Positions 2,012 through 45,849 of a DNA stretch of 64,000 nt are shown one piece after another. The stretch is from Candidatus Omnitrophota bacterium (GTDB lineage: Bacteria > Omnitrophota > Gorgyraeia > Tantalellales > Tantalellaceae). Position 1 is the stretch's first letter. Each line of letters begins with the position of its first letter. Location: assembly GCA_034723315.1 (NCBI GenBank), contig JAYEOV010000035.1:8329-72328 (forward strand), read 5' to 3'. A program made the translations under genes and the position numbers. A model generated the notes under the pieces. That model searched no databases, was not told where the DNA came from, and worked only from the letters and a program-made list of their open reading frames with translations.

Positions 2012-3285
2012 TTACATGTCGGGGATCTGGCTGGAGTCGGCTTTGGAAGATCTTGAAACATAACATGTAAAATTATATTTCACATATCGCACGCCGGGTT
2101 TGATGTTAATGACCCCTGTTTCCTTTCCAATTTTAAAAAGGATAACTATCATGAAGATCAAGAATGTAATGAGGCCTAAAAACGACTTTTTACCTGATGA
2201 GCGTGCTCGAAGGACAGCAATTATACTGGGCAAGATCCCAAAGAGTACCGCTATTCCCAACGCGCCTACCATATCAAGAGCCGTAAGGAATATTTTCGGA
2301 AAGATAAGCGTCACTATGAGCGGCGGTCCGAAAGATAACAGGACTATAAGCAACCTGTTCGACTTTTTGAAATAGTTTGTCAAAAAATCGTCTATAAACT
2401 CCATAAGACCGTATCCGTTGGTGAGATATGAAGTTATTATCGCAAGGAGAGCAAACAGCAGCGAAAATGTAATAAATGCCGGTGATCCTATGATCTGCGA
2501 TAACGGCACGGTGGACGGTAAGTTATTCTGAAAAGCCTCTGTTATGCTTATATTGCCATCGATCGGAAGCGCGCCTAAGCTGACCTGAACCCAAAGGGCC
2601 GTTATAGCATATCCTGCGAGAACACCTATAAGCATTGATGTTAATATAGCGGGTCGCCTCCACCCGAGATCCTTACAAATGTTCGGAATAATGTTATGAA
2701 AGCTTAGCGCGGTTATCAGGACCGGAACGGTACAAGGCAGGAATTTCCAGTCCATGTAACGAAGGCGTTCGGGTCTATATGTTTTTCTGCCATAATTACA
2801 AGAACAGCGAAAGACAACCACAATAAGATCACGAACAAAGCAGTATAGTTCTTAAGTAAGCGCGGATTCATTATGGTGAGCCCCGTGATTATTACAAAAA
2901 ATGTTAAAGTAACTACGACTCCGGGGACGGGAATGGCGATCAGATCTTTTATGATAATTGTGGCACCTGAAAGATAAACCATAAGAAAACCGTAAAAGAT
3001 TATAAGATTTGATATGACAGCGATCCATTTACCCGTAGAACCCAGGTAGGCCTGGTAAAGGCTTGGATAATGGAATTTGGGGTTCCTGGTCATGATCGCC
3101 TCATTCCCTAACGTAACTGCTGTAAAGAACAGAGCCGCTCCTATCAAAAGAATACCTAAAATGGAAGGGATAAATCCGGCAAAACCTGCTTGTATAGGCA
3201 AGCCTAAAATTCCCGCGCCGACAAGATTCCCTGTAATAAAAAAGGCCATCAATATTACTGTTAAAAAAGCAGGCTTTTCATTCAT
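2012..3285 (-). pseudogene. HAAAP-family aromatic amino acid (Tyr/Trp) permease, frameshifted
   Basis: Two overlapping ORFs (2716..3285 and 2012..2821) in different frames. Together they give a ~420-aa TyrP/Mtr/TnaB-like permease (N-term GAGILGLP motif). The frame switch is near 2765-2790. Confidence 0.55.
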
Positions 3286-3443: not shown

Positions 3444-6158
3444 TTATTTTTTCTCCTTGAGCTCTATCAAGGCCTCTCTTGCGCCAAGGCATAGCGCTTC
3501 ATAACCATCTTTAGCGCCCGATTTATAGCCCTCTTTTTCCATGTCTTCGGGATCCAGGGCCTTGCCAAATCTTACTTTTATTGGATGACGTTTGGGGAAT
3601 TTAGACGTTCTTGGCCAGGCCTGATATGTTCCTTCTAATACAACCGGCACGAGTTTTGCTTTTGACTCCTTTGCCAGAATACCGAATCCTTTCTTGAACT
3701 CGTTTATATTTCCGTTCAGCGTGCGTAGACCTTCCGGGAACAGGCACAAATTTCTGCCTTTCTTCAGCACATAATAACAACTTCTCAGGGCCTCCAAAAA
3801 GTGTGAATAAAAATCAAGAGGGATAATTCTTCCTATTTTTATAAGGTTACGGATGATGGGAACAGCAAAATACGGCCTGAAACCAACAAAAAACAGATCC
3901 AATTTAGGAAAATTGGGCAAAGAAGTCGCGACAAGAAACCCATCCAGATAGCTTGTATGGTTTACGTATAATATATACGGGCCGCTTTCGGGGACATTAT
4001 TTCTTCCTTCCACTTTCATGCTGAAAAATATCTTGAAGATCATATAAAACGGGCAAAGAAACAGGAAACAACCCAGCCATACTACGAATCCCGGCTTTAA
4101 ATCGATCTTGTCCAGATTTTCCTTTTTGGGCAGGAGCTGAAAAAGAGTTTTCCAATATTCAGGACCGGAAGTTATCACCCTTTCAGATACAGGCAAAGCT
4201 TCCGTTTCCTCTTTTAAAAGCGCTTCAATGCCCACGATCAGGTCTTTAACGGTAAATGCCCTCCCGACGATCTCAGCCTCTATTTTTATGCCAAATATTT
4301 TTTCAAGACCTGAAGCAAGCTCGATCCTGCCCAAAGAATCTATACCAAGGTCAAGTTCCAGTAAGTCTCCCGGTGTAACGGCCCTCTTGATGGCGGTCTG
4401 TTCTTCAAGATAACTCATTATTTTCCTGCCGGCCCCCGACTCCATTATTTCCAGATCTTCTTTTGACAATTCCCCTGGTCCCGGAACGTATTCTTTTTCT
4501 TCAAGTATTTTAGGCGTATAAAGCTCTTTAACAGCGAACCTCTGGATCTTACCCAGGACAGTGCGCGGAAGCTTTTCAAGCGTTATAAAAAACCCCATGA
4601 TCCTTTTATGAGGAGGCAAGCTTCTCGAAACATTATCGAGTCTTTCCTTGATCACGCTCCTTAAGTTTATTTCTCCGAATTTTCTGAAAAACTCGAGATC
4701 GGGCACAATGACAGCCCACAATACCAGGTTCTCTTCCAGGCCTTTTTTAGCGGGAAGTTCGAATACGCACATCTCCTTAACCGGCGTGTGACTGGAATAT
4801 GCTTCTTCTATTTCTTCAGGGTAAATATTCAAACCAGAACTTAAGACAACCACCTCTTTTAACCTCCCGGTTAAAAATAAATACCCGTCTTTATCAATAT
4901 ACCCGAGATCGCCCGTATGAAACCATCCGTCTTTTATGGCCTGCGCGGTCAGGTCTTTTCTCCGATAATACCCTTCCATGACATTCGGCCCGCGCACGAT
5001 AACTTCGCCTGTGCCTTTTTCGTCTTTATCTATGATCTTTAATTCTACATCGGGGATAGGCAGCCCGACTGAGCCGATCTTCGGCTTCTTTAAAGGATTT
5101 GCGGTCAGGATCGGCGATGTCTCAGTTAGACCGTAACCCTCTAATATCGTAAACCCGAGTTTAAACAACATTCTCTCGGCGCCTTCATCAAGTTTCGCGC
5201 CTCCACTCATAAACAGCCGCATTGACCTTCCGAACCTCCTGTGAATACCATAAAGAAAATAACGCGGCAAATTAATGCCTGTCTTCACCCTGATCTTATA
5301 TAAAACTTCAAGGGTTAGCCTGAACAGAAGATCAACCGGAAAAGGTATTCTTTTTAACGTCTCTGTGATCTTTTGATAAAACGAGTAAAAAATCTGCGGC
5401 ACGGCAACAAAAACGCTCGCGTTCAGTTGTCTCATGGCTTCCAGAACGGTTTCTCCCCGCATGGTCCCGGGATATATAATCCTGCCGCCGCACAAGAACG
5501 GAAATAACATTGTCACCGTTAACGAATAAGCGTGATGCAGGGGAAGGATCGAGATAACGCTATCATCCGGCGTAACCAGGTTCAGCCTGTGTAGAGAATC
5601 GCAGTTAGCGAACAAATTCCTGTGCGAGAGCACAACGCCTTTTGGTTCAGCGGTAGTGCCTGAAGTGTATAAAATACACGCCGGATCATCGCCTCCGATC
5701 TCCACATCCTTAATCTGTTCGGGCGACCTTTTTACCGCGTCCTTAAACGCGTCTGAATCCACAGAAATGACCCTTTTTATTGATGGACATCTCCGGCAGA
5801 TCTCTTCCATTAATCTGAAGGAGGACTCGCCCGTAAAAGCAAATTTGCATTCAGAATCCTTTAAAATATTCTCGACCTCTTCCCGGGTAGATTCGGGATT
5901 GAGGGGGATAGAAATCGCTCCCGCGGATACTGTGGAGAAAAATATCAATGGCCATTCGGGTCTGTTATCCAGCAAAATGGCGATCTTATCATGTTTCTTA
6001 ATGCCCTCTTCTAATAAAGACGCAGAGAGCCTTTCCACGTCTTGTCTGAATTCGCCAAAAAGAACATCGCCCCATTCATTACCTTTATTGTATTGAATTG
6101 CCACTCTGCCGGAATATTCTAACGAGATAGCTTTAAACTTGTCTCTTAAATTCCGCAC
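3444..6158 (-). CDS. Tri-domain fusion: long-chain acyl-CoA/ACP synthetase (AMP-binding) - acyl carrier (PP-binding) domain - PlsC-type lysophospholipid acyltransferase
   Basis: AMP-binding signature YTSGTTAEPKG, GYGLTETS, TGDLG; carrier domain LGIDSLGRIEL; hydrophobic segment, then NHTSYLDG (HX4D) and FPEGLRT acyltransferase blocks. Confidence 0.75.
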   Translation of the reverse strand: MRNLRDKFKAISLEYSGRVAIQYNKGNEWGDVLFGEFRQDVERLSASLLEEGIKKHDKIAILLDNRPEWPLIFFSTVSAGAISIPLNPESTREEVENILKDSECKFAFTGESSFRLMEEICRRCPSIKRVISVDSDAFKDAVKRSPEQIKDVEIGGDDPACILYTSGTTAEPKGVVLSHRNLFANCDSLHRLNLVTPDDSVISILPLHHAYSLTVTMLFPFLCGGRIIYPGTMRGETVLEAMRQLNASVFVAVPQIFYSFYQKITETLKRIPFPVDLLFRLTLEVLYKIRVKTGINLPRYFLYGIHRRFGRSMRLFMSGGAKLDEGAERMLFKLGFTILEGYGLTETSPILTANPLKKPKIGSVGLPIPDVELKIIDKDEKGTGEVIVRGPNVMEGYYRRKDLTAQAIKDGWFHTGDLGYIDKDGYLFLTGRLKEVVVLSSGLNIYPEEIEEAYSSHTPVKEMCVFELPAKKGLEENLVLWAVIVPDLEFFRKFGEINLRSVIKERLDNVSRSLPPHKRIMGFFITLEKLPRTVLGKIQRFAVKELYTPKILEEKEYVPGPGELSKEDLEIMESGAGRKIMSYLEEQTAIKRAVTPGDLLELDLGIDSLGRIELASGLEKIFGIKIEAEIVGRAFTVKDLIVGIEALLKEETEALPVSERVITSGPEYWKTLFQLLPKKENLDKIDLKPGFVVWLGCFLFLCPFYMIFKIFFSMKVEGRNNVPESGPYILYVNHTSYLDGFLVATSLPNFPKLDLFFVGFRPYFAVPIIRNLIKIGRIIPLDFYSHFLEALRSCYYVLKKGRNLCLFPEGLRTLNGNINEFKKGFGILAKESKAKLVPVVLEGTYQAWPRTSKFPKRHPIKVRFGKALDPEDMEKEGYKSGAKDGYEALCLGAREALIELKEKK

Positions 6159-6232: not shown

Positions 6233-6913
6233 TTACACAGGCAATACATAAAATAATATTGCAAAATAATGACACATACTGCCACCCAGAACAAATAAAT
6301 GCCATATCGTATGGTGAAAAGGGAACTTAATAAAAAAATGAAAGATCCCCAAGCTATAGAACATTCCACCTGCGACCAGCCAGCTGATCGCCCCGTAAGG
6401 AATGTTTTTTACTATCGGGTATAAGATAACAAGCGCAAGCCACCCCATTATCAAATAACTGACAGTAGATAGAACTACAAACCTGTCTACAAAGAACATT
6501 TGAAATATTATCCCCGCTAATGTTAGCCCCCAGATCGCGCCCAAAAAAGTCCAACCCAGTTTACCTCTTAACAAAACAAGTATAAAAGGAGTGTATGAAC
6601 CGGCGATCAAAAGATAGATGGTAGAATGGTCTATTTTCTTAAATATGTATTTTAAACGCGCTAAGGAAAAACTATGATATAACGTAGAGGCAGCATATAA
6701 TGCGATCAAACAACCGCCGTAAATGCTGAAACTAACAACCCGCCATGTGTCCCCATGGAGGCTGGCCGATACAACCAGAACAAGAAAACCTGCAATGCTC
6801 AACAAAAAGCCAATGCCATGCGTGGCGCTGTTCGCTATCTCTTCCTTTAAAGACTGCTTGTATTTCTCCATAATTTTCCCTTTTATTCTACCCCAAACAA
6901 AAATCCCCTGCAA
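6233..6913 (-). CDS. Hemolysin III / PAQR family 7-TM protein
   Basis: 226 aa, 7 predicted TM helices, conserved His-containing motifs (HSFSLARL, HLFVLGGSMCHY). Confidence 0.7.
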   Translation of the reverse strand: MQGIFVWGRIKGKIMEKYKQSLKEEIANSATHGIGFLLSIAGFLVLVVSASLHGDTWRVVSFSIYGGCLIALYAASTLYHSFSLARLKYIFKKIDHSTIYLLIAGSYTPFILVLLRGKLGWTFLGAIWGLTLAGIIFQMFFVDRFVVLSTVSYLIMGWLALVILYPIVKNIPYGAISWLVAGGMFYSLGIFHFFIKFPFHHTIWHLFVLGGSMCHYFAILFYVLPV

Positions 6914-9768: not shown

Positions 9769-12700
9769 TTACGCGCAGATAGTTAGAATTGTATCCTGAA
9801 GATGATGTGTATCCTCGATATCATCCACGATCGGCGGGCAACTGTCAAAATCGGAGAAGAGCTTCTTGATGAGTTCTTCAAGGTTTTCATTTGTCGTGTT
9901 AATGATAATGTCGAATCGTTCGCCCGAAGTCAACCGTTCTTTAAGCTCGTCCGCGTCTCTGGCAGTGACGATATCACCTTTGAATCCTATAACCTTGAGT
10001 TTTCTTATCCCTTCTTCAAAATCGCTTCCATATACCAGGGCCACCTTATTGGCCGAGGCTATCTGCAGTTCCAGGGCTTTCTCATTTCTGGGAAGACTCA
10101 CTTTTAACGCTTCTTTTATATGACAAAATTTTTCATCCATGCGCATCGTTTTCGACATTATCCCTGAGATCAGGCCTTCATCTTCCAGCTGCACAAACCG
10201 TTCATCACCTACCGCATGGCCGGTGGAAATAAGGATCGGGAACTTATGGCCTCTTTCCCGGACTTTTTTCGTCAATATCAAGCCGTCAATAATATCACTT
10301 CCCCTGGCCGGCGGCATGCTCACGTCAAATATGGCAAGGTGGAACTTTAACCCCGCTTTTTCCGCCTCTTCTATCAGATCAAAGGCTTCCTGACCATTCA
10401 CGGCCAGCCAGACATTACAGCCTTCCTCCTCAAGCATGCTTTTAAACTGGTCTCTCTGGAGAAGCTCATCGTCAGCAACGATAATATTCGGCCTGTCTTT
10501 TACGATCTCCTCCGGCTTCCCGTGCAATTCTTCTTCTTCTTCTTCCATCTTAACCGGGACTCGTCTTTTACCCGGCTCAGCTTCCGCCTGCCGCAGATAA
10601 GGAATAAACATCCTGACCGCGGAACCGTCCTTCTCATTGTCAACCGTTATCCTTCCGGCAAGATACGTCAGTATCCTGTGAGCAAGCGCCAGTGAAATAT
10701 TTTTATTTTTCTCCCATTTAAGAACTTCTGCTCCCTTTTCCCCGGCTCCGAGCTCTACCCTTTCCAACTGGCTCTCAGTAAACCGGCAGTAATTATTTCT
10801 GAAAGAAACAATTACTTCTCCGCTTCTTCTGTTACGCTCGAGTTTTATGCTTAATCGTTTTTCCTGCGGATCCAGTCCCTCAACCGGGACCTCGTTAGTT
10901 TCCATCCCAAGGGTCAGGATGTTATATAATGCGAATTTAAAGGCCGCTTCGTCGGCCATGATGAAAATATCCTCTTCCGGCCGGTATAATGTCTCGACTT
11001 CATCAAAGGTGATCGTATATTGCGGGAAAAACCTTTTTGATTTCTTGAATGCAGACGCGATATCCTTAAGGACTTTTGCCACTTCTACCTGCCCCGGCTT
11101 TTTCTCAAAGCTGTCTCCTGCCGGCAGCAGAAGGCGCCCGTCGTCGATTCTTTCTTGTGTCGTGTGGAAACCTGTATATATCTTCTCAATATATTGCCTT
11201 AACTTTTCATTATCAGATCCGGCTGTTTCTTTTATAAGCTTTTCAATCGACGACAACATACCTACCATATTTATCTCTATGATCCTGAGCGTTTCAGCCG
11301 GGGCAACATTTTTTAACATAGCCTGCACCTGCCTTACCGACTCTGCCAAACGAGGCTCATGTAAAGCGGTATCCAGGTCAATATCTTTCATTATGTTCTC
11401 TACCTGTTCCATCAGGTTTTTCACTTTAATGGCCAGGACCGGATCAACGCTCTCCATTGCGGTCTGCATTTGTTTTACCAGGATCATCGCATCTTTAGCC
11501 TGGAGAAGATCAGTCGGGTCCTTGAGGATAATTGTCGGTATATTCTGCATCATCCTTATCATGTTTACTGCCTCATCCATCTGTCCGCTGATCAATTTGC
11601 ACTTTGCCAGGATATCCTCAGGCAGGTCCGGCATAAAAGTCATTATCAATTCAAGATAACCTCTACTTCCGGCTATCGCGTTGTTAAGGTCATGCCACAA
11701 GCTGCCGTATATGTTGTCCTGCGCTTCAGACGCACGGAGTTTTATCCTGTCCAGTCGACGTTCAACCAGAGGGAATTCCATTGTAAATGTCGTCCCGTGC
11801 CCTAACTGACTTTTCGCTTCCGCTGTGCCGTTATGCTCCTGGGCGACATCCCTGACGACAACAAGCCCAAGGCCGGTCCCCATACCGTCATCCCTTTTCG
11901 TATAAAAGGGTTCCCAGATATTTTGCAGGTCTTTTGCCGTGATCCCGCATCCTGTATCTCTAAAAGATACACGCATTACGTCCCTGCCTTTCTCATCCTT
12001 TGTTTTTTCCGTACCGAGAGTCAATTCCTTTGTCTTCGAGTCTCTCATAAACGATACAGCATTCATGATAATGTTAAGGAAAGCCTGTCTTAACCTGCTT
12101 CTATTGGCAATGACCACCTGCCGGTGTTCGCTTAATTCCAGTTTTACCGTTATACCCATACTCTCTATCATTGTCTTTCTCATCTCCAGGACATCCAGCA
12201 GGACTTCTTCGACGGAACAGGGGAGGTTCCCCAAATCCGGCGATCTCGCGAAGCCCAGAAACCTGTCCGTGATATCGGCAATACGCTCTGCTTCCTGTTC
12301 AATAATCGCCAGCGTCCGGATAATCTCTTCCTCTTCCACAAATCCCCCTTTGTACAGGCGGGTGAGGATCCCGTCAACAATATTAATTATGTTAGACGTG
12401 GGATTGTTTATCTCGTGAGTCAGCGCCGCTGTGTTTTCTCCGATCGCTGTAAGCCTTTCAGCCTGGACCAGGAGCGCTGTCTTTTCCTCCAATTTCGCAT
12501 AGGCGTTCTTCAGGGCGTTTTCAGCCTGTCTCCGCTTTGTAATATCCTGCATCTGCACTAAAAAACCAGACGGAACGCCGTTTTCCACGGCCAGGGGCGT
12601 TACCCTGTAATCTATGAAGACCCTCCCTGACTTTGCCTCTCCGGACAATCCGGCTTTTTTAGGCTTATCAAAATCAATTTCGTTTTCGAAGCTGATACAT

Positions 12701-15405
12701 TCTCCTTTACGAACCCTGTCTTTTTCCGTACCTATGATAATATCAAGAAAATCGAAGAGATTTAATACTTCTCTTTCTTTCCCAAAATCGGCAATGCCGT
12801 TTTCTTCTAAATACGCTCTGTCTACATATAGAAACGCCTTGTTCACATAGGTCAAGCGGCCGTCAGAATCAAAACGGGCGATCCCGATCGGCGATTCTTC
12901 GGAAATTTCCCTGAATTTCTGCTCGCTCTCCCTCAACGCTATCGCCGCGTCTCTGCGCTCTTCTTCCCGTGTAACCGCTTCCGCAAGGATCCCGAAAAGT
13001 TTCATATCACTATCATCAAGTTCAACACTTTCCTTGTATAGCACACAGAGGCTTCCAACGCGCTGCCCGGCGCTATATACCGGAAATCCGATATAGGTCC
13101 TGAACCCGTACTTCGCCACATTGGGATCGGTTTTGGAATAAGCGGTCTCTTTTACATTTCTAACAATATAAGGAAGCCCTCTAAGGCCTTTTTTGATAAC
13201 ATCATAACAGATATGGCCATCCGGTTTATCAACCGGATTATAGTCAGGTGGAGTCTCCCACTGACCTACCGAGCATAACATGCCGCCTTCCATCCTGTTA
13301 TACAAAGCACAGTCTCCGTTTAAAAATTCCCCGCAGGTCCTGGTAAGTATTTGAATATTCTCGTCATAATCGGTCCCGAGCCTGAGAAGTGCGTCATTCA
13401 GCATTAAAATACGTTCTTCTGCCAGCTTGAGCTCTGTGATGTCGCTACCCACACACAGGATCCCGGAGATGTTCCCCTTGGCATCAAAAATCGGCTTATT
13501 GGTCCATGCGATGTAGACCAGTTCGCCATCCTTACGCAAATTTGCGGTCACGTTATTGACATAATACTCGGGGTATTTTCTTATATTCAGGATCATTTCC
13601 TCGAGGTCCTGTCTGGATTTTTTTGTTTCAGGCATGATCGTGCCGATCATATTCCGGCCGAGCAATTCTTTCTCCGAATAGCCCAGAAACATCCGGGTGA
13701 ACTCATTCGCGAAAGTAATTTCTCCGTTCAAGTTCATCCTCAAAATAATGCTGTTGGCGTTCTGGACCAGATCGCGGTATTTAAGTTCACTTTCCCTGAG
13801 CCTTTCTTCCGCCTGCCTACGTGCCATCCCTCTTGAAATAATATCGCCTGCCACACGGAGGATCCTCGCGTCTTTATCACACCAATCGCGGTGCTTTTCT
13901 GTGTCTTCAATACCCATATATCCGACAAGTTCTCCATCTATCGAATACAGAGGCACAATAATAAGAGAAAAAACATTCTGATCCCGCATACTCTCCTTTT
14001 CCGCGGTCGCATCCTCCGGAAGATCATCGGTGCCCCGAATAATTATGTTTTCATTGTTCCTGAGTTTTTTCATCAACCACGGGTATATGGAAGAAACCTG
14101 ATCCTTACGGTTCTCTATCTGCGGTTCTGTATCCGGATCGCACCACTCATATGTGTTATCCATTATGCTGCCGTTTTCCCGGAAGCGAAAAATATACGCC
14201 CTATTCACGTCGACCGCTCTCCCTATAATTTTGAGGATCTGATCAAGGTCAGGGATGGGGCCTTCAACGAACATACTTGATACCTGCGCAAGAGCTTTCT
14301 CTATGTCAAGACGATATGTTAATTCTTCCTCAACCTGACGCTGATCGGCAGAATAGTCTCTGGTGGTTATTTTTTCGGTAAGATCGATAAATTCCGAGAC
14401 CCTGGCCTCATTGAGCAGATTCATCTCTCTTCCTGTCAGGTTCATCTCAGAAGGGAAAGTGCCGGGAAGGTCTATTTTTCTATCGCTAAAGCATTGAACA
14501 AAACGCTTGAATATATCCTGGAACAGGTTAGACTCCTCGTGTGTAAACCCGGCTTTTGCGAATATTTCATGAACAATTGTATCGGCATTTAAATATACCA
14601 GTTCATTTGGAAGATAAATGCCGCGGCCGCCCGCATGCGGCTCTTCTAACCTGTATTCCTTCCTCGTCTCAGTGATGAGCATAAGCTGGCTAATGCTGAC
14701 AAGTTCCCTGAAGTCTCTGGAAAGCCCGGTAGATACAATATCAAGGAACGCGTAAATACAGGAAAGGGGAAGGCCATAATTTTTCTCTGTTACAATCATA
14801 CACTTGCCGGCAAGTATGGCTTCCCGGATCTTCTCGTCATGTTTTTTTTCGCTCTCCGCAGCCATGGATATCGCGCGACCTTCCAGTCTTTCGGCATACT
14901 TTAACTGTTGGAGCTTTTCGAGAAGATCCTTTTGATTTTTTTCACGTTGCGTCAAAAACGTGATCTTATATTGAGGATCCGTACCGGGACTATCGGTTAT
15001 ACAACACCAGTAATCAGCCACCCTTTCTACTGTTCCAAATGTACACGGAACCAGGCGTAATCCAGCTTTTTTGCAATTGACCGCCCGGCTGAAATAAAAC
15101 CTTATCCTAATGTCTTCTATGTTGAAATTTATGCCCAATGATGAAGCGGAGTGGTCGCCCCATTCATTCATTACGTCTATTTTTTTATTACGCATACCTG
15201 AAACAAGGACATATTCGAGTAACGCGATATCTTTGATCTCCTTGTTAAGCAAGGGAAGAAATATGGATTGCGGCGCTATGTTTCTACCAGCAAATCTCAT
15301 GGCATAAGCCGGACTTACGCTTGTTGAAGTAATCAATAATAAAACCGTAATTATTATACTGGTTGCCTTTATTATTAAGCTATTTTTTCTTTTAAACAAT
15401 ATCAT
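9769..15405 (-). CDS. Giant hybrid sensor histidine kinase (1878 aa): N-terminal unknown domain, GAF-PAS-GAF-PAS, HisKA+HATPase, second HisKA-like+HATPase, receiver, C-terminal pseudo-receiver-like domain
   Basis: H-box THEINNPTSNI; G-boxes DTGCGI...GTGLGLVVV; second H-box SLWHDLNNAIAGSRGYLEL and second ATPase-like core; REC domain IIVADDELL...FDVSMPP... Confidence 0.85.
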   Translation of the reverse strand: MILFKRKNSLIIKATSIIITVLLLITSTSVSPAYAMRFAGRNIAPQSIFLPLLNKEIKDIALLEYVLVSGMRNKKIDVMNEWGDHSASSLGINFNIEDIRIRFYFSRAVNCKKAGLRLVPCTFGTVERVADYWCCITDSPGTDPQYKITFLTQREKNQKDLLEKLQQLKYAERLEGRAISMAAESEKKHDEKIREAILAGKCMIVTEKNYGLPLSCIYAFLDIVSTGLSRDFRELVSISQLMLITETRKEYRLEEPHAGGRGIYLPNELVYLNADTIVHEIFAKAGFTHEESNLFQDIFKRFVQCFSDRKIDLPGTFPSEMNLTGREMNLLNEARVSEFIDLTEKITTRDYSADQRQVEEELTYRLDIEKALAQVSSMFVEGPIPDLDQILKIIGRAVDVNRAYIFRFRENGSIMDNTYEWCDPDTEPQIENRKDQVSSIYPWLMKKLRNNENIIIRGTDDLPEDATAEKESMRDQNVFSLIIVPLYSIDGELVGYMGIEDTEKHRDWCDKDARILRVAGDIISRGMARRQAEERLRESELKYRDLVQNANSIILRMNLNGEITFANEFTRMFLGYSEKELLGRNMIGTIMPETKKSRQDLEEMILNIRKYPEYYVNNVTANLRKDGELVYIAWTNKPIFDAKGNISGILCVGSDITELKLAEERILMLNDALLRLGTDYDENIQILTRTCGEFLNGDCALYNRMEGGMLCSVGQWETPPDYNPVDKPDGHICYDVIKKGLRGLPYIVRNVKETAYSKTDPNVAKYGFRTYIGFPVYSAGQRVGSLCVLYKESVELDDSDMKLFGILAEAVTREEERRDAAIALRESEQKFREISEESPIGIARFDSDGRLTYVNKAFLYVDRAYLEENGIADFGKEREVLNLFDFLDIIIGTEKDRVRKGECISFENEIDFDKPKKAGLSGEAKSGRVFIDYRVTPLAVENGVPSGFLVQMQDITKRRQAENALKNAYAKLEEKTALLVQAERLTAIGENTAALTHEINNPTSNIINIVDGILTRLYKGGFVEEEEIIRTLAIIEQEAERIADITDRFLGFARSPDLGNLPCSVEEVLLDVLEMRKTMIESMGITVKLELSEHRQVVIANRSRLRQAFLNIIMNAVSFMRDSKTKELTLGTEKTKDEKGRDVMRVSFRDTGCGITAKDLQNIWEPFYTKRDDGMGTGLGLVVVRDVAQEHNGTAEAKSQLGHGTTFTMEFPLVERRLDRIKLRASEAQDNIYGSLWHDLNNAIAGSRGYLELIMTFMPDLPEDILAKCKLISGQMDEAVNMIRMMQNIPTIILKDPTDLLQAKDAMILVKQMQTAMESVDPVLAIKVKNLMEQVENIMKDIDLDTALHEPRLAESVRQVQAMLKNVAPAETLRIIEINMVGMLSSIEKLIKETAGSDNEKLRQYIEKIYTGFHTTQERIDDGRLLLPAGDSFEKKPGQVEVAKVLKDIASAFKKSKRFFPQYTITFDEVETLYRPEEDIFIMADEAAFKFALYNILTLGMETNEVPVEGLDPQEKRLSIKLERNRRSGEVIVSFRNNYCRFTESQLERVELGAGEKGAEVLKWEKNKNISLALAHRILTYLAGRITVDNEKDGSAVRMFIPYLRQAEAEPGKRRVPVKMEEEEEELHGKPEEIVKDRPNIIVADDELLQRDQFKSMLEEEGCNVWLAVNGQEAFDLIEEAEKAGLKFHLAIFDVSMPPARGSDIIDGLILTKKVRERGHKFPILISTGHAVGDERFVQLEDEGLISGIMSKTMRMDEKFCHIKEALKVSLPRNEKALELQIASANKVALVYGSDFEEGIRKLKVIGFKGDIVTARDADELKERLTSGERFDIIINTTNENLEELIKKLFSDFDSCPPIVDDIEDTHHLQDTILTICA

Positions 15406-22882: not shown

Positions 22883-23929
22883 ATGGCAATGAAATTGAGT
22901 GACAGTCCGCACAGGAGATACAATGCCCTCACCGGGGAATGGGTGCTGATTTCGCCGTATCGGGCGGAACGTCCCTGGCTTGGCGAGCGTGAGAACCCGC
23001 CGCGGGAAGAACGTTCCTCGTATGATGAAAAATGCTATCTGTGTCCCGGGAACGTCAGGGCCAAAGGGCAGCGAAATCCGGATTACGAAAGTACTTATGT
23101 TTTCACGAACGATTATGCCGCCCTTCTCCCCGAAACGGATCCCTTTCGTGACAGAGAGGATCCGTTATTAGTTGTTGAACGCGTGAACGGCACCTGCCGG
23201 GTAATATGCTTCTCTCCCCGTCATGATCTGACACTGGCGGAGATGCCGCCGGAAGATATAAGAAAGGTCGTTGATGTGTGGGCGGAACAGGTCCTGGATC
23301 TGGGAAAAACTTACCGCTGGGTGCAGATCTTCGAGAACAGGGGTGAGATCATGGGTTGTTCAAACCAGCATCCTCATTGCCAGGTCCGGGCGGAAAGCGT
23401 TTTGCCCAATGAGCCCTCCAGGGAGGACAGGCGGCAGTCGGAATACTATGAAGAGAACAGGACGGTTCTCCTGATGGACTATTTGAAGATAGAACTGGAG
23501 CTCGGGAAGCGGATAATAATAGAGAACGAACACTGGGCGGTGCTGGTCCCCTTCTGGGCCGTCTGGCCGTTCGAGACCTTTATTTTGCCGAAAAGAAACG
23601 TCAAAAGCCTCCCCGATCTTTCGGGCGAAGAACGAGACGCACTGGCAGACATTCTCAAGAAACATCTGACCAGGTATGATAATCTTTTCAATTGCCCGTT
23701 CCCCTATACTATGGGATGGCACGGCGCACCGGCGGACAATGGTGATCATCCTTACTGGCAGCTACACGCTCACTACTACCCTCCCCTACTGAGATCCGCC
23801 ACGGTAAAAAAGTTCATGGTAGGTTATGAAATGTTATCGGAACCGCAAAGGGACATAACCGCTGAACAGGCAGCGGAGCGTTTGAGACGATTGCCGGACG
23901 AACACTACAGGGTGAGAAAAGATCAATAA
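22883..23929 (+). CDS. galT: Galactose-1-phosphate uridylyltransferase
   Basis: Zn site CYLCPGN, active site HPHCQV (HxHxQ), FSPRH, very close to E. coli GalT throughout. Confidence 0.85.
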
Positions 23930-23953
23930 CTTCACGGGCGTGAAGACAAATAT

Positions 23954-24907
23954 ATGTTTAAGATCAGGGAAGACAGCTCCGGCGGCCTCAAAAGATTAAA
24001 GATACAGAACACCGCCACGGGCGAATTTGTCTCGATCGTTCCGGGTTTCGGGGCGAACATAAACGAACTTGTCCTGCATAAGAACGGCACACTGCACCCG
24101 GTCATAGCGGGTAATCGGGATATAAGCGGTTTCAGAGGAAAAGGCGTCTTTAAAGGCGCGAAACTCATCCCCTTCCCTAACAGGCTGGAGGATGGGACCT
24201 ATACTTTTGAAGGCGAACGGTATCAGCTTGAGTTGAATTATCCTGAAGAACTCAATGCCTGTCACGGTTTTATCTACGATAAAGAGTTCATCATCGAAGG
24301 ATCCGCCGAGAAAACTGATCATGCGTCCGTGAAACTTGTTTACCATTACAACGGATTCTTGCCGGGATACCCTTTTAACTGCAAAATAGAACTGGATTAT
24401 ACGTTAGGCGGGTCCCGAGGGTTCAGGTGCCGGACATGTATCGAAAATCTGGGTGAAAGATCGATGCCGGTCGGAGACGGGTGGCACCCTTTTTTCGGTT
24501 TTCAAAGAAAGGTTGATGAACTTCTGCTCCGGTTCCCCGCGGAACAAAAGATCATTGTAGATGAACGATCAATACCTTCCGGGGAATCGTTGCCGTATGA
24601 TCTGTTTGACAGCTTGAACAGGATCGGGGATATTGAACTTGATACGTGTTTCAGGCTAAAACCCGGTAAAGACGGGATACGGATCTCCGAACTTTATGAC
24701 CGGCAGAAAGACGTGAAGTTACAGCTGTGGCAGGAAACGGGCGAAAATAAATATAATTATCTTCAGATATATATTCCGCCGGACAGAGGTTCGATCGCGA
24801 TGGAGCCAATGACATGCAATATAAACGCGTTCAATAACCGTGAGGGGCTGATAATTTTGCGGCCGGAACAAAAATTTGAAGCCGGATACGGAGTGAAACT
24901 TGCCTGA
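23954..24907 (+). CDS. Aldose 1-epimerase (galactose mutarotase) family protein
   Basis: 317 aa; position between galT and the gal transporter; conserved HGF / aldose-epimerase-like pattern. Confidence 0.55.
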   Translation: MFKIREDSSGGLKRLKIQNTATGEFVSIVPGFGANINELVLHKNGTLHPVIAGNRDISGFRGKGVFKGAKLIPFPNRLEDGTYTFEGERYQLELNYPEELNACHGFIYDKEFIIEGSAEKTDHASVKLVYHYNGFLPGYPFNCKIELDYTLGGSRGFRCRTCIENLGERSMPVGDGWHPFFGFQRKVDELLLRFPAEQKIIVDERSIPSGESLPYDLFDSLNRIGDIELDTCFRLKPGKDGIRISELYDRQKDVKLQLWQETGENKYNYLQIYIPPDRGSIAMEPMTCNINAFNNREGLIILRPEQKFEAGYGVKLA

Positions 24908-24966
24908 GTCGAAATATCGGATGAGGAAAACTTTTGTGACATATAACCCGAAAGGAGAAACGGATC

Positions 24967-26388
24967 ATGGAAAATAATTTTGCCGGGACTGAAGAGCGGC
25001 TTGCCGGAGAGATCAAGGATGTCAGGAAGTTCAAAGTCCTTGTTTACGTAGTCGCCCTGACAGCCGCCTTGGCGGGATTGCTTTTCGGGCTTGACATAGG
25101 GGTCATTTCCGGGGCACTTCCTTTTATCGCCAAACAGTTTAACGCGAGCACAGAAGCGCAGGAATTCGTGGTAAGTTCTCTCCTGGCAGGGGCCGTGCTG
25201 GGGACACTGATAAGCGGACTGATATCCCGCAAATACGGCAGGAAGAACGCGCTTTTGGTAAGCGCGGTTGTCTTCGCGATCGGGGCGCTCCTGTCCGCGT
25301 TATCCGTCAGCACCAAGATGCTTATAATGGTCAGAATTTTCCTGGGTGTGGCCGTCGGGATGGCGTCGTTTACCGCCCCGCTCTATCTGTCGGAGATGGC
25401 CCCTCGACGGATCAGGGGAGCCCTGATATCAATGTACCAGCTGATGATCACCATCGGGATACTGATGGCGTATATGAGCGACACCTTTCTAAGTTACGGG
25501 AAACACTGGCGCGTCATGCTCGGAGTGCTGGTCATCCCCTCAACGTTCATGTTTATCGGAGTTCTGCTCTTGCCGAAGAGTCCCCGCTGGCTGGTCCTTG
25601 CCGGCAAGAAGGAACGTGCCAGGAAGGTGTTGAACAAGCTGAGGCATATCGATGAAGTTGAAGGAGAACTTGTCGAGATAGAAAATACGCTTGAAAACAA
25701 ACAGAGCGGATTCCAACTGCTGGTCGAAAATAAACAGTTCCGTAAAGTGCTCCTCCTGGGGATCGGGCTGCAGGCCGTGCAGCAATTCACCGGCATGAAC
25801 GTGATAATGTACTACGCTCCAAAGATCTTCAAGCTCGCCGGGTTCACCACCACATCACAGGCTATGTGGGGAACGGTGCTCGTCGGCCTGATAAATGTTC
25901 TGGCGACTTTTATCGCGATCGCTTTTGTCGACAGGCTGGGACGAAAGCCGATCCTGTTCACAGGCTTCGTTGTAATGGGCCTGAGCATGGGGACACTTGG
26001 TCTGATGTTCAATATCGGAATAAAGGTCTCTCAGACGGTGCAGTTTGCCGCTATAGGAGCCCTGCTTGTATTTATCGTCGGTTTCGCGATGAGCGCCGGG
26101 CCGATCATCTGGGTCATCTGCTCGGAGATCTATCCTCTGGCCGGCCGCGATCTTGGTATCACCACCAGCACGGCGACTAACTGGGTGTGTAATACGATCG
26201 TCGGCGCGACTTTCCTGACACTGCTTAACGTTATGGGTCCCGCCCACACATTCTGGCTGTACGGAGGGTTGAATCTGCTGTTCATTTTGTTCCTATTCCT
26301 CTTCGTCCCGGAGACCAAAGGAGTATCGCTGGAAAAGATCGAAAGAAACTTGTTGTCGGGTAAACGACTGGTCAGGATCGGCCGCTGA
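24967..26388 (+). CDS. MFS sugar porter (galactose/H+ symporter-like)
   Basis: 12 TM; GRK/GRR motif; PKSPRWL and PETKG sugar-porter signatures. Confidence 0.8.
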   Translation: MENNFAGTEERLAGEIKDVRKFKVLVYVVALTAALAGLLFGLDIGVISGALPFIAKQFNASTEAQEFVVSSLLAGAVLGTLISGLISRKYGRKNALLVSAVVFAIGALLSALSVSTKMLIMVRIFLGVAVGMASFTAPLYLSEMAPRRIRGALISMYQLMITIGILMAYMSDTFLSYGKHWRVMLGVLVIPSTFMFIGVLLLPKSPRWLVLAGKKERARKVLNKLRHIDEVEGELVEIENTLENKQSGFQLLVENKQFRKVLLLGIGLQAVQQFTGMNVIMYYAPKIFKLAGFTTTSQAMWGTVLVGLINVLATFIAIAFVDRLGRKPILFTGFVVMGLSMGTLGLMFNIGIKVSQTVQFAAIGALLVFIVGFAMSAGPIIWVICSEIYPLAGRDLGITTSTATNWVCNTIVGATFLTLLNVMGPAHTFWLYGGLNLLFILFLFLFVPETKGVSLEKIERNLLSGKRLVRIGR

Positions 26389-26488
26389 TATGAAAGAAGT
26401 GATGAAGAAGAAGACGACATTTATACTTATCGCCGCCATGATCTGTTTTCAGATTAACGGCATGGTCGGGTTTTGCCCAGTACATTAC

Positions 26489-26606
26489 TAGAACCCATTT
26501 CATAACCCCGTTCGTTACGAGGCTGAGCGAAAAGGCCATTGACAAGGCCTGAGGGGCAAAATGCCCGGAAACGTAGCCGTTGCGCTACGTTGATGATATT
26601 TTGTCC
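26489..26606 (+). mobile_element. MITE-like element copy (left TIR + core, right end truncated)
   Basis: AGAACCCATTTCATAACCCCGTTCGTTACGAGGCTGAGCGAAAAGGCCATTGACAAGGCCTGAGGGGCAAAATGCCCGGAAACGTAGCC...GCTACGTTGA core shared with the 48573 copy. Confidence 0.55.
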
Positions 26607-26650
26607 GGATAGCAGGGAACCTTTTCACGGTCCCGGAGTAGGGAGCAAAA

Positions 26651-27805
26651 ATGAAAACGGCTGAAATTGCCGAAAAATTCGGACGATATTTTTCCGACTC
26701 GCCGCGGCTTTTCTCCGCCCCCGGACGCGTCAACCTGATCGGGGAGCATACCGATTATAATGACGGTTTCGTTTTTCCCATGGCGCTCGAGTACTGCGTT
26801 GTGGTCGCTGTTTCCCGCCGTTCCGACAGGCAGGTAAATATCCGATCCGAAAACATGGGCGATTCGATCTCTTTCTCCCTGGATGATAATCTCAAGAAAA
26901 GAAACCACTGGAGCGATTACACCGCGGGAGTGGCCCGCATGCTCGAGCTGGAGGGTATACGGCTGCCCGGCGCGGATATGCTGGTTGACAGTTCCGTGCC
27001 TCTCGGCGCGGGACTGAGCTCTTCGGCCGCTATCGAGATCTCATCAGCGCTGGCTTTCCTGAGCACCGCGGACCAGGAGATGAAGCCGGCCGATCTGGCC
27101 TTGCTGGGGCAGCGCGCGGAGAATCAGTTCGTCGGCATGAACTGCGGTATAATGGACCAGTTTATTTCCGTGCACGGAAAAAAGGACCATGCTCTATTTC
27201 TGGACTGCAGGTCACTTAGCTACAGGCAGGTCCCGCTGCCCTCCGGCAAGGTAAAGATCGTTATCTGCAATACAATGGTTAAACATGAGCTGGGCGCTTC
27301 GGAATACAACAAAAGGCGGACTGAATGCGAGGAAGGTGTCCGCATCCTCAAGGAGTATTACCCGGAGGTGCGGGCCCTGCGAGATGTTACTATAGAGCAG
27401 TTCAGGGAAGCGGAGAACGCCCTGCCGGATGTAGTGAGAAAACGCTGCCGGCATGTCATCTCTGAGAACCAGCGGGTCCTTGATTCCCTGGATGCTCTCC
27501 AGGGGGACGATCTTGATCGTTTCGGCCATTTGATGGACGGCTCTCATGACAGCCTTAAGGCTGATTATGAAGTAAGCTGCCCGGAACTTGATCGCATGGT
27601 TGAAATAGCCCGGCGACTGCCTGGCTGCCTGGGAGGACGGATGACAGGCGGCGGTTTTGGCGGCTGTACGGTCAACCTTGTCGTAAAAGACGTGGTAGAT
27701 GATTTTTGTTCACAGATCAGCGGCTCCTATGAAGAAGCGGCCGGTATCAGACCGCAGATATATATCTCCACTCCTTTTCCGGGAGCGCATGAGATCGTCA
27801 GATAA
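26651..27805 (+). CDS. galK: Galactokinase
   Basis: PGRVNLIGEHTDYN signature, GAGLSSSAA ATP-binding motif, GHMP kinase. Confidence 0.85.
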   Translation: MKTAEIAEKFGRYFSDSPRLFSAPGRVNLIGEHTDYNDGFVFPMALEYCVVVAVSRRSDRQVNIRSENMGDSISFSLDDNLKKRNHWSDYTAGVARMLELEGIRLPGADMLVDSSVPLGAGLSSSAAIEISSALAFLSTADQEMKPADLALLGQRAENQFVGMNCGIMDQFISVHGKKDHALFLDCRSLSYRQVPLPSGKVKIVICNTMVKHELGASEYNKRRTECEEGVRILKEYYPEVRALRDVTIEQFREAENALPDVVRKRCRHVISENQRVLDSLDALQGDDLDRFGHLMDGSHDSLKADYEVSCPELDRMVEIARRLPGCLGGRMTGGGFGGCTVNLVVKDVVDDFCSQISGSYEEAAGIRPQIYISTPFPGAHEIVR

Positions 27806-27929
27806 TAAGTGAATATACTTCTACTGGTTTATACCCGTTGTATTACACGGGTCAGGTTTTTACCCGGGAACCCTACACAACACAACCCCGGACTCACAGC
27901 CGGGGAACTTCTGAAGCGTATCACAAAAG

Positions 27930-42838: not shown

Positions 42839-43069
42839 AAAGAAGAACTGGAGAATATCTTTGACAAGCACAAAAAACTTTACACGGCTAAAGAAAAACT
42901 GGGGCCTGGACTTGCGATCATACAGGATATTGTGAACATGCACAAAGGAAAAATCTGGGCCGAAAGCAACCCCAAGAAAGGTAACAGGTTTATTGTAGAA
43001 CTCCCCAAAAACATAGCATCAAAAAGCTGCGCCCTTAAGTGGATTCACTCCTCGTCGTCCACTTTATAA
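42830..43069 (+). pseudogene. Sensor histidine kinase C-terminal fragment (HATPase_c G2 box only)
   Basis: ...ELENIFDKHKKLYTAKEKLGPGLAIIQDIVNMHKGKIWAESNPKKGNRFIVELPKN; begins exactly at the ATG within the MITE right TIR; the rest of the kinase is absent. Confidence 0.5.
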
Positions 43070-43770: not shown

Positions 43771-43980
43771 TTAGGTCTTCTTTCTGATCAAAGATTCAAT
43801 TACCCTTACAAGCAAATACAAAGAAAGAGAACAAAAGATCCCTTTTGCAAGGAAATACCAGGCAACCGCATCGTTTGAAAACTCACCCTTAAAAACACCG
43901 TTGCCGAGCAGGAAGGAATAAACGCATATAAGAAAAACGGCCACCGCCGCAGCATCCACTAATGCCTTTTTCTTTTTCAT
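43771..43980 (-). CDS. Small membrane protein, hypothetical
   Basis: 69 aa, 2 TM. Confidence 0.3.
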   Translation of the reverse strand: MKKKKALVDAAAVAVFLICVYSFLLGNGVFKGEFSNDAVAWYFLAKGIFCSLSLYLLVRVIESLIRKKT

Positions 43981-44767: not shown

Positions 44768-44791
44768 CGTAAACCTCATTGTTTTGTTAAA

Positions 44792-44905: not shown

Positions 44906-44948
44906 CTGAGCATAGCCGAAGGGTCAGTCGCGTAAGCCATGCGCTCAT

Positions 44949-45839: not shown

Positions 45840-45849
45840 TTATTACTCC

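Follow-up and report, generated by a model that had tools for sequence, protein, structure and literature searches.

Single polypeptides that combine a fatty-acid-activating ligase, an acyl carrier protein (ACP) domain, and an acyltransferase have been described previously. ElbD of Myxococcus xanthus (Q1DC43), encoded in the elbA-E operon, carries an N-terminal fatty-acyl reductase domain followed by the ligase-ACP-acyltransferase series; its ACS and ACP activities were confirmed in vitro, and acyltransferase activity was never detected. Almost all ElbD homologues of other phyla lack the reductase domain, and a split elbD, with one ORF for the reductase and another for the A-ACP-AT part, has been described in Poribacteria and Acidobacteria. 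Of 267 Omnitrophota MAGs in a Black Sea study, 93 were recorded as carrying 'ElbD homologs', and reductase-less 'ElbD homologues' are now counted as bacterial ether-lipid capacity in environmental lipid-biomarker work. A homologue need not imply ether lipids, as Pontiella illustrates: it possesses one, and ether lipids are absent. Bacterial fusions of FAAL-like proteins with lysophospholipid acyltransferases have also been reported (Patil et al. 2021, PMC8460268).

The protein analyzed here is encoded in a 64-kb stretch of DNA from a Candidatus Omnitrophota bacterium (hereafter, the window). A preliminary description had proposed the order ligase, embedded phosphopantetheine carrier, and membrane-anchored HX4D acyltransferase, and Pfam matches, residue conservation, hydrophobicity, and AF2 modeling all bear this out. 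What that description missed is that the arrangement is common and that ElbD-like and FAAL-like proteins had been reported before; the family is widespread, and its architecture is already in the literature and not new.

Domain architecture and family conservation

The gene is one 904-aa ORF on the minus strand, a detail that the preliminary description had left unstated, with an AGAGG-like ribosome-binding site 5' of its GTG start codon (Table 1). Its product is 100% identical to an NCBI MAG protein, 'AMP-binding protein [Candidatus Omnitrophota bacterium]'. The rest of the window contains no duplicate or remnant of the fusion gene and no further acyltransferase homologue.

Table 1. Positions of the fusion gene, its encoded domains, and the transporter gene within the window.
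Feature	Position (nt)	Strand	Remarks
Ligase-ACP-acyltransferase gene, complete, 904 aa	3444..6158	minus	GTG start at 6158, stop 3444-3446
AMP-binding N-terminal domain, residues 15-398	4965..6116	minus	Pfam PF00501, 1.4e-83
Adenylation C-terminal subdomain, residues 435-551	4506..4856	minus	Pfam AMP-binding_C (449-537) / AMP-binding_C_3
Acyl carrier (PP-binding) domain, residues 581-650	4209..4418	minus	Pfam PF00550 (match 581-631)
Hydrophobic helix, presumed membrane anchor, about residues 688-712	4023..4097	minus	Kyte-Doolittle and AF2
LPLAT/PlsC-family acyltransferase domain, residues 714-841	3636..4019	minus	Pfam PF01553, 2.5e-19
MFS_1/ATG22-like transporter, 403 aa	45850..47061	minus	Up to 68% identical to the orthologous MFS encoded upstream of the fusion gene in relatives

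The N-terminal half belongs to the ANL enzymes, exceeding the PF00501/PF13193 profile cutoffs (281 bits against 29.9 for PF00501) and displaying the core motifs. The P-loop YTSGTTAEPKG (residues 164 to 174), EGYGLTET (residues 340 to 347), and HTGD are all present and conserved. The hinge GRLKE (residues 431 to 435), which contains the invariant R432, lies just upstream of the C-terminal subdomain, and within that subdomain the A10 catalytic Lys537 (GK537IQR) occurs in all of 110 homologues and in at least 90% of a wider set of 97 sequences. Structural comparison with the PDB using Foldseek recovers the ANL fold (TM 0.86-0.90, normalized to target) and returns ANL enzymes and A-PCP constructs only, with no tri-domain structure among them; residues 44 to 626 align as one stretch with the solved A-PCP didomain of McyG. 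A helical insertion of ∼50 residues (262 to 311) is evident in the AF2 model and in the alignment to E. coli Aas. As to specificity, the best NCBIfam and PDB matches are acyl-CoA ligases. The long-chain FACL models of NCBIfam match, every one below its own cutoff, and the acyl-CoA ligase FadD13 (161 bits) outranks FadD10 (99 bits), the sole FAAL in the hit list, so that the pair is a comparison of rank. Because the adenylation domain is nearer to generic acyl-CoA ligases than to the ligase domain of Aas, release of acyl-CoA is possible.

The acyltransferase domain is preceded directly by the sole strongly hydrophobic segment of the protein (residues 689 to 716), with a 19-residue Kyte-Doolittle maximum of 2.14 at residues 690 to 708 and an AF2 helix at 691 to 711. 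The domain scores 69.8 bits against PF01553 (cutoff 23) and has the hallmarks of the LPLAT/PlsC family: the HX4D motif as HTSYLD (residues 734 to 739, nt 3942-3959, with H734 and D739), the FPEGxR motif as FPEGLRT (residues 807 to 813), and the motif IV proline, P838. The homologue alignments show no substitution of N733, H734, D739, or P838 and at least 96% conservation of FPEG.

Could the gene be an assembly or frameshift artefact that fuses two separate genes? The preliminary description had singled out nt 4400-4500 (residues 553 to 586, the ligase-carrier linker) as the place to look. The frame across this linker is unbroken in homologues of ∼900 aa from more than 100 independent assemblies (NCBI, JGI, ENA, and Logan), and complete genomes of cultured Fusobacteria carry the same uninterrupted ORF. 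One distant locus (L077) has the gene as two ORFs. Given the identical NCBI protein and the independent full-length homologues of the same architecture, an artefact is ruled out, with practically no probability left to it.

The homologues retaining this architecture represent a large family, with 266 clusters at 50% identity and E<=1e-30, and are found in Omnitrophota, Auribacterota, some Nitrospira, Methylomirabilota, Coxiellaceae, and cultured Fusobacteria (Ilyobacter, Fusobacterium). Across the 97 sequences, which reach down to 31% identity, K173, D417, R432, T533, S608, N733, H734, and D739 are invariant. Variants on the theme include a relative with two tandem acyltransferase domains (P0221) and a widespread short paralogue that retains only the ligase C-subdomain, the ACP, and the acyltransferase. 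An 820-aa ORF upstream of the short-form genes was considered as a hidden adenylation core and rejected, since it shows no similarity and no Pfam match.

The carrier domain and the proposed acyl-transfer route

The middle domain matches PF00550 at 23.0 bits against a gathering cutoff of 20.8. Its signature, LGIDSLGRIEL (residues 604 to 614, nt 4317-4349), includes the predicted phosphopantetheine attachment site, Ser608 (nt 4335-4337), within a DSL context. The AF2 model (pLDDT 90) folds the domain as a four-helix bundle (575-588, 608-622, 628-633, and 637-649) in which the serine stands at the N-terminus of helix II, as in a PP-binding domain. NCBIfam ACP models and AcpM/ACP structures also match the region, which resembles the type II ACPs AcpM and AcpP. 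Conservation of the serine context, on which the preliminary description had staked its assignment, is complete or nearly so: D607, S608, and L609 are 100, 100, and 99% conserved in the 110 homologues, and in the 97-sequence set Ser608 is invariant and Asp607 at least 90% conserved. Among the scanned ORFs of the window, which covers part of the genome, none was recognized as a PPTase gene.

The ligase matches to acyl-CoA ligases, the JGI label 'long-chain acyl-CoA synthetase' for homologues, and a PP-binding score barely over its cutoff would all suit a plain fusion of a long-chain acyl-CoA synthetase with an acyltransferase that depends on acyl-CoA, the carrier being a non-functional linker. 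We regard this as very improbable. An inert linker would not be expected to keep Asp607 and Ser608 to the extent just described, nor to be conserved as strongly as the catalytic domains (mean identity 0.60 in the carrier region vs 0.54-0.69 in those domains, over the 110 close homologues). Some relatives have two to three carrier domains in tandem, which also argues against a vestigial carrier, and in vitro activity has been published for the ACP domain of ElbD. The carrier domain therefore appears, from its sequence and model, to be functional.

The acyltransferase domain finds its top NCBIfam match in PRK08633 (92 bits), an acyl-[ACP]--phospholipid O-acyltransferase of the Aas type. When a family-derived profile was run against the two E. 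coli enzymes, Aas scored 86.6 bits and PlsC 27.4 bits. On these scores the domain is Aas-like, not PlsC-like. An enzyme of de novo phosphatidic acid synthesis, in which a PlsC/GPAT-type domain would act on lysophosphatidic acid or glycerol-3-phosphate and make phospholipids from exogenous fatty acids while bypassing FASII acyl-ACP, is accordingly unlikely by our estimate, given the 59 bits by which the profile favors Aas. It does draw on membership of PF01553, on a sequence match to T. maritima PlsC (5kym, 4e-9), the one solved acyltransferase so detected, and on a 60-bit match to the AGPAT model TIGR00530, which falls under that model's cutoff of 103. The two acyltransferase domains of P0221 would fit two successive acylations, and a reportedly ultra-small, host-dependent lifestyle of Omnitrophota would suit the use of exogenous fatty acids. 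Among the related loci, however, plsX, plsY, and cdsA are not conserved neighbors, and CTP_transf_1 occurs near one locus only.

Taking as its basis the domains, catalytic residues, conservation, acyltransferase affinity, and gene neighborhoods established here, the reading that we favor, with somewhat better than even confidence, is a self-contained, Aas-like enzyme with its ACP in cis, serving fatty-acid salvage and lysolipid re-acylation. We infer its substrate, acceptor, in-cis channeling, and physiological role as follows. The N-terminal adenylating domain would convert a free long-chain fatty acid and ATP to fatty acyl-AMP, and the acyl group would then pass to the 4'-phosphopantetheine on the protein's own Ser608 rather than to CoA or free ACP. 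The loaded carrier would swing to the C-terminal acyltransferase, which the single hydrophobic helix presumably tethers to the cytoplasmic side of the membrane. There a lyso-lipid acceptor would be acylated by the His734/Asp739 dyad; as for E. coli Aas, this acceptor is most probably a lysophospholipid. Channeled lysolipid re-acylation, the role put forward in the preliminary description, is the best-supported proposal for its function. If the Aas-like reading holds, several uncultured lineages, and cultured Fusobacteria as well, could draw on a private acyl pool, tethered to the protein, to scavenge or recycle fatty acids. Because cultured carriers exist (Ilyobacter and Fusobacterium), the biochemistry is directly testable.

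Gene neighborhoods and alternative acceptors

Genomic neighborhood analysis identifies two recurrent partners of the fusion gene. In 12 of 55 full-length related loci, the gene directly upstream encodes an MFS/ATG22-like protein; a gap of 2-6 nt or an overlap of 8 nt is seen between the two genes in the six loci listed. A Hydrolase_4 alpha/beta hydrolase is encoded at most two genes away in 35 of 82 loci, and in 22 of these its gene follows the fusion gene directly. The closest solved relatives of this hydrolase are the RtxA alpha/beta-hydrolase domain and monoglyceride lipases. Adjacency of either gene is confined to a minority of loci. In many relatives the fusion gene, the MFS gene, and the lipase-like hydrolase gene form an apparent operon. 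The MFS protein is a candidate importer or flippase for lysolipids or fatty acids, and the hydrolase a candidate supplier of free fatty acid. The transporter would be an analogue of LplT without detectable homology to it: the NCBIfam LplT models are unmatched, and BLASTP to E. coli LplT is not significant.

Neither partner adjoins the fusion gene in the window, where no homologue of the hydrolase is found. The MFS orthologue is encoded ∼40 kb away and is a likely functional partner of the fusion protein. Synteny shows a relocation of the fusion gene to its present position. The TrhA/PAQR gene upstream (6233-6871) was considered as a conserved partner and discarded, as a TrhA homologue occurs in 0 of 80 related loci and the fusion gene has been relocated.

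These partners invite a more elaborate scenario, which we consider possible though doubtful. Omnitrophota are reportedly ultra-small and host-dependent, and the ATG22-like MFS, the fusion protein, and the lipase-like hydrolase might together make up a lipid-scavenging device, with host lysolipids imported, fatty acid freed from one and re-esterified onto another, and the CoA and free-ACP pools bypassed. The Omnitrophota papers searched for lipid metabolism are silent on that subject. Were the device real, reading 'ElbD homologue' hits as ether-lipid synthesis in Omnitrophota and other phyla would be a misassignment, and the short paralogue would be an acceptor module loaded in trans.

Some distant members of the family have different neighbors. 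Genes for OlsB/FeeM-like N-acyl amino acid synthases (PF13444, PF21926) lie directly upstream in three loci (L078, L080, and L083), in tandem in two of them, and the acceptor may therefore vary within the family. OlsA is itself a PF01553 enzyme. An OlsA/GlsA-type aminolipid O-acyltransferase, which would esterify an N-(3-hydroxyacyl) amino acid (a lyso-ornithine, lysine, or glycine lipid) with a salvaged fatty acid as its second acyl chain, would agree with both observations. For the window protein such a role is decidedly unlikely: the three loci are 3 of 55 full-length ones, all encoding proteins 36-38% identical to it, an OlsB-like gene is absent both from the window and from beside the close orthologues, and the acyltransferase profile strongly matches Aas.

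The A-ACP-acyltransferase order shared with ElbD raises a further alternative, in which the ligase-ACP part would offer a thioester-bound acyl group to a reductase acting in trans and the acyltransferase would work in the synthesis of alkyl-glycerol ether lipids, the role proposed for the M. xanthus enzyme. The split variants of Poribacteria and Acidobacteria and the Black Sea count of Omnitrophota MAGs are compatible with this, yet we judge it quite unlikely. By published domain order the fusion protein corresponds to ElbD minus its reductase; the FAR/NAD_binding_4 domain is absent by Pfam, as the ligase begins at residue 15. The 150 best representatives for the ACP-AT region all fall short of ElbD length (∼1,400 aa or more). 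No separate reductase ORF and no elb operon context (elbB HAD-like, elbE/elbA epimerase-like) is found beside the window gene, and the only NAD_binding_4-like gene of the window is GalE, in a galactose operon 22 kb off. In the wider family, NAD_binding_4, Epimerase, and HAD fall outside the 25 most frequent families among 103 immediate neighbors of 55 full-length loci. The Aas-type acyltransferase scores, the absence of ether lipids in Pontiella, and the acyltransferase activity never seen for ElbD in vitro also weigh against it. Together, the acyltransferase domain and the gene neighborhoods point to ordinary ester re-acylation, rather than ether-lipid capacity, as the probable function.

Comparison with Aas, FAAL fusions, and PlsC

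The closest functional parallel to the fusion protein would be E. coli Aas (b2836), the 2-acyl-GPE acyltransferase/acyl-ACP synthetase. Both proteins place an ANL adenylating domain and a PF01553 acyltransferase on one membrane-bound polypeptide, and in both cases the operon often includes an MFS transporter gene (lplT-aas in E. coli, MFS-fusion in relatives of the present gene). The comparison with Aas drawn in the preliminary description is apt, since both catalytic domains align to the E. coli enzyme (at 28% and 25% identity) in permuted order and the acyltransferase is specifically Aas-like. Whereas Aas runs from acyltransferase to ligase, the fusion protein runs from ligase through ACP to acyltransferase; whereas Aas has no carrier domain and uses a separate ACP, the fusion protein has its carrier built in. 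The helical insertion of its ligase is absent from Aas, and the ATG22-like MFS near the fusion gene is not detectably LplT. MFS-fused Aas proteins are represented in NCBIfam by PRK08633 and PRK06814. The whole fusion protein falls far under these Aas cutoffs (262 vs 1221 bits and 221 vs 1349 bits, respectively), as does its C-terminal 345-aa fragment (residues 560 to 904) under that of PRK08043 (45 vs 886 bits).

In FAAL-ACP didomains the acyl group goes to a fused carrier and not to CoA, as proposed here, but the ligase of the fusion protein ranks nearer to acyl-CoA ligases by the FadD13 and FadD10 scores given above. T. maritima PlsC resembles the C-terminal part in having an HX4D core after a hydrophobic N-terminal helix region, and differs in being a stand-alone LPA acyltransferase of ∼250 aa.

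Domain architecture and conservation of the fusion gene

The fusion gene encodes a ligase, an embedded carrier domain and an acyltransferase on one polypeptide, as the preliminary description had claimed: the Pfam domains occur in the proposed order, and both quoted motifs, the carrier motif and the HX4D box, are present (Table). An AGAGG-like ribosome-binding site lies 5' of the gene, within the 75-nt AT-rich spacer that follows the preceding gene. The whole protein contains one strongly hydrophobic stretch (residues 689-716), located directly before the acyltransferase core. Structurally, an AlphaFold2 model built from the homolog alignment (mean pLDDT 90, pTM 0.76) predicts an ANL fold followed by a four-helix carrier domain, short helices, a long helix (residues 691-711) and an acyltransferase core of alpha/beta type; helix 608-622 of the carrier domain begins with Ser608. 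A Foldseek search of the PDB returned ANL enzymes (TM up to 0.86-0.90 on target) and A-PCP constructs, e.g. McyG, and nothing else; no solved protein in that search has the full ligase-carrier-acyltransferase architecture.

Table. Positions of the fusion gene, its domains and motifs, and features of the window and of related loci
Feature	Position	Strand	Remarks
Fusion gene	window 3444-6158	minus	single ORF, 904 codons, GTG start at 6158
AMP-binding	residues 15-398		Pfam, 1.4e-83
AMP-binding_C	residues 449-537		Pfam
PP-binding	residues 581-631		Pfam, 23.0 bits (gathering score 20.8)
Carrier motif LGIDSLGRIEL	residues 604-614
Acyltransferase PF01553	residues 714-841		Pfam, 2.5e-19
HX4D box HTSYLD	residues 734-739		followed by FPEGLRT at 807-813
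Trp/Tyr permease, split	window 2012-3285	minus	directly downstream of fusion gene; overlapping ORFs 2716-3285 (N-terminal half) and 2012-2821 (C-terminal half)
TrhA/PAQR (hemolysin III family) membrane-homeostasis gene	window 6233-6871	minus	directly upstream of fusion gene; NCBIfam equivalog, 242 bits
Hybrid sensor histidine kinase	window 9769-15405	minus	1878 aa; GAF, PAS, HisKA, HATPase and receiver domains
Leloir-type galactose cluster, complete	window 22883-29105	plus	GalT, aldose 1-epimerase, sugar MFS transporter, galactokinase, GalE-like epimerase
OmpR-type regulator	window 43045-43734
69-aa ORF	window 43771-43980
MFS orthologue	window 45850-47061		up to 68% identity
DUF1846 gene	window 60149-61717
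Tri-domain gene, two tandem copies in Ilyobacter polytropus	Fusobacteria loci L088:3423-8590; L089:3345-5819
Short paralogue (example)	L020:5587-7044		also P0121
OlsB/FeeM-like genes	L078:3575-4309; L080:2570-4162; L083:2988-4308
Giant gene	L001:1-6649; L002:1-6649		runs off the locus

The protein is identical (100%) to a database entry named "AMP-binding protein [Candidatus Omnitrophota bacterium]" (P0001), and its best 120 database relatives, drawn from NCBI, JGI, ENA and Logan assemblies, share 44-72% identity with it, nearly all being ~900 aa long with the same Pfam content. The preliminary description had raised two ways in which it might fail, a carrier domain without its Ser context and an artificial fusion of two ORFs around 4400-4500. 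Neither is borne out: D607-S608 is 100% conserved among 110 full-length homologs, as are the P-loop, the A10 lysine K537, H734 and D739, and no ORF junction occurs at 4400-4500, which corresponds to residues 553-586 in the ligase-carrier linker. The probability that separate genes were joined by an assembly artifact is negligible. A wider set (n=97, down to 31% identity) shows no variation at K173, D417, R432, T533, S608, N733, H734 or D739. Conservation of the carrier region is on a par with that of the catalytic domains (mean identity 0.60 vs 0.54-0.69 in the 110 homologs), and all three domains are, judging from these alignments, evidently under selection.

Family distribution and genomic neighborhoods

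A search of 1.84 billion cluster representatives with the carrier-plus-acyltransferase part only (345 aa) retrieved 19,110 matches at E<=1e-3 and 266 at E<=1e-30; 80 of the best 150 representatives are at least 830 aa long, with the queried region at the C-terminus. Variants carry two or three tandem carrier domains or two tandem acyltransferase domains (P0148, P0169, P0183, P0221), a single one of them having a ligase-ACP-AT-AT arrangement. These tandem-ACP forms, together with the invariant carrier Ser, make it very unlikely that the enzyme follows an acyl-CoA route with a vestigial carrier. At least 402 relatives were found in a scan of one genome per species. The best 80 of these are mostly from Omnitrophota, some with the depositor label Planctomycetia, and also include Gammaproteobacteria/Coxiellaceae, Methylomirabilota, Auribacterota, Nitrospira, Desulfobaccia and one delta-proteobacterial MAG. 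Cultured carriers include Ilyobacter polytropus, Fusobacterium animalis, F. vincentii and Rubrobacter radiotolerans, whose proteins RefSeq names only "AMP-binding protein"; for those of Ilyobacter and F. animalis, the alignment (29-34% identity) spans all three domains, and the DSL and NHxSxxD motifs are intact. A DUF1846 gene follows the tri-domain gene in F. animalis and another is encoded in the window, which is probably a coincidence.

A short paralogue of ~486 aa is widespread, occurring in 22 of 80 genome loci (L020-L041). Its N-terminus corresponds to the ligase hinge (query residue ~429), so that it consists of the ligase C-subdomain, ACP and acyltransferase alone; the 5.6 kb upstream encode no adenylation core. 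Many short-form genes overlap by 4 nt an upstream ORF of 820-900 aa for which Pfam gives no domain, although the N-terminus of one copy is GtrA. In 17 of the short-form loci an alpha/beta hydrolase is encoded no more than two genes away, and in some cases a full-length paralogue is encoded on the same contig (L031/L043, L035/L047).

Genomic neighborhood analysis reveals two recurrent partners. In the first four homologous loci, an MFS_1/ATG22-like gene (~405-415 aa) stops 2-6 nt before the fusion gene or overlaps it, and in two of the four a Hydrolase_4 alpha/beta hydrolase overlaps the stop codon. More broadly, 12 of 55 full-length loci have an MFS-family gene directly 5' of the fusion gene, and 35 of 82 loci have a hydrolase-family gene no more than two genes away, which in 22 is the next gene downstream. 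The MFS protein matches no LplT model, nor does BLASTP align it significantly with E. coli LplT, the transporter paired with Aas. The nearest solved relatives of the hydrolase are an RtxA alpha/beta-hydrolase domain (6.7e-11) and monoglyceride lipases (~1e-4). In MARTX toxins, the ABH domain acts as a phospholipase A1. The 25 most frequent families among 103 immediate neighbors of the 55 full-length loci include no reductase, epimerase or HAD family. OlsB/FeeM-like N-acyl amino acid synthase genes stand immediately upstream of three distant family members (L078, L080, L083), in tandem in two of these loci, which hints at an aminolipid role for this subgroup. An OlsA-like aminolipid acylation by the window protein is nevertheless quite unlikely, as it is suggested for those three distant members only. 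Four other members have an extra 414-aa PlsC-like gene nearby.

A contig labeled 'Methanosarcinales archaeon' (L052) also carries the MFS, fusion gene and hydrolase trio. Its carrier-acyltransferase region and MFS are 41% and 53% identical to the window proteins, its hydrolase is 84% identical to that of another Omnitrophota locus (L004 or L005), and it is probably a mis-binned bacterial contig. Two genes upstream of the orthologous fusion gene, L001 and L002 encode a giant product (over 7,000-8,000 aa), a size that agrees with reports of very long Omnitrophota proteins.

Genomic surroundings in the window

In the window, the block seen at locus L003 and taken as ancestral (MFS, fusion gene, 70-aa ORF, OmpR-type regulator) is broken. 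The fusion gene lies 40 kb from the MFS orthologue, behind the TrhA/PAQR gene, and where it would sit, the ~1.9 kb between the MFS gene and the 69-aa ORF (43981-45849) hold three unrelated ORFs without a Pfam match, which indicates a rearrangement in this lineage. No terminator is predicted in the spacer between TrhA and the fusion gene. TrhA was considered as a partner and rejected: none of 80 related loci has it nearby, and the adjacency is therefore treated as incidental. The Trp/Tyr permease is split by a frameshift, which reflects either pseudogenization or an error in the assembly. Neither this permease nor the sensor kinase, the galactose cluster and the other neighbors (TrkH, DUF2784, a CAAX protease, purine genes, isocitrate dehydrogenase) are related to lipids, and the 64-kb window contains no homolog of the hydrolase, of OlsB or of a second acyltransferase, and no recognized PPTase.

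Proposed acyl relay and relation to ElbD and Aas

The ligase domain is nearest to acyl-CoA ligase families (best, NCBIfam long-chain FACL PRK06187, 324 bits; best PDB matches MatB, oxalyl-CoA ligase and FadD13), all matches being below family cutoffs; FadD10, the sole FAAL among them, scores lower than the acyl-CoA ligases, a comparison of rank alone. The carrier domain matches type II ACP models and AcpM structures. For the acyltransferase domain, the Aas-type acyl-[ACP]--phospholipid O-acyltransferase PRK08633 ranks first in NCBIfam (92 bits), followed by the AGPAT model TIGR00530 (60 bits, below its own cutoff), and with a profile made from this region of the family, E. coli Aas reaches 86.6 bits and E. 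coli PlsC 27.4 bits. In view of this weak PlsC score, it is unlikely that the protein makes phosphatidic acid de novo with exogenous fatty acid.

By established ANL and carrier-protein chemistry, the ligase domain would convert fatty acid and ATP to acyl-AMP, and Ser608 would then carry the acyl group in thioester linkage to its phosphopantetheine arm. In keeping with HX4D chemistry, the His734/Asp739 dyad would use this acyl group to acylate a hydroxyl on a membrane lipid acceptor, with the acyltransferase domain presumably anchored to the membrane surface by helix 691-711. Because this domain is Aas-like, and because a transporter and a lipase-like hydrolase are recurrent neighbors of the gene, a lysophospholipid is the most probable acceptor; the preliminary description had put forward lysolipids or another acceptor. 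The general relay (ligase, in-cis ACP, acyltransferase) stands on firmer ground than the choice of acceptor. What the data show directly is which domains are present, how far their residues are conserved and how the genes are arranged; we infer the rest.

The architecture is already on record, while the kind itself is uncharacterized. ElbD, the Myxococcus xanthus ether-lipid enzyme, is described in the literature as a reductase-ligase-ACP-acyltransferase; a review of the ElbD work states that the reductase domain is missing from nearly all ElbD-like proteins in other phyla. Where ElbD is split, one of the ORFs is a ligase-ACP-acyltransferase. Patil et al. (PMC8460268) noted fusions of FAAL-like proteins to lysophospholipid acyltransferases, and a Black Sea survey counted ElbD homologs in 93 of 267 Omnitrophota MAGs. 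A literature search found no paper characterizing a reductase-less member or linking one to Aas. ElbD-type ether-lipid synthesis would fit the shared domain order and the counting of Omnitrophota among ElbD-homolog carriers, but it is unlikely here, since a reductase is present neither in cis nor nearby and the acyltransferase is Aas-like. The present analysis adds the evidence for an Aas-like acyltransferase and a conserved transporter/hydrolase neighborhood, which together imply caution in using reductase-less ElbD homologs as ether-lipid markers.

The window protein scores under the whole-protein cutoff in all Aas models, and it should not be annotated as Aas. Both catalytic domains of E. 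coli Aas align with its own, in reversed order, and it differs from Aas in the carrier domain inserted between the two activities. Given this alignment and the Aas-type acyltransferase matches, it is best described as a permuted Aas relative with an inserted carrier domain, and we slightly favor the view that it is a one-polypeptide version of the Aas/ACP system.
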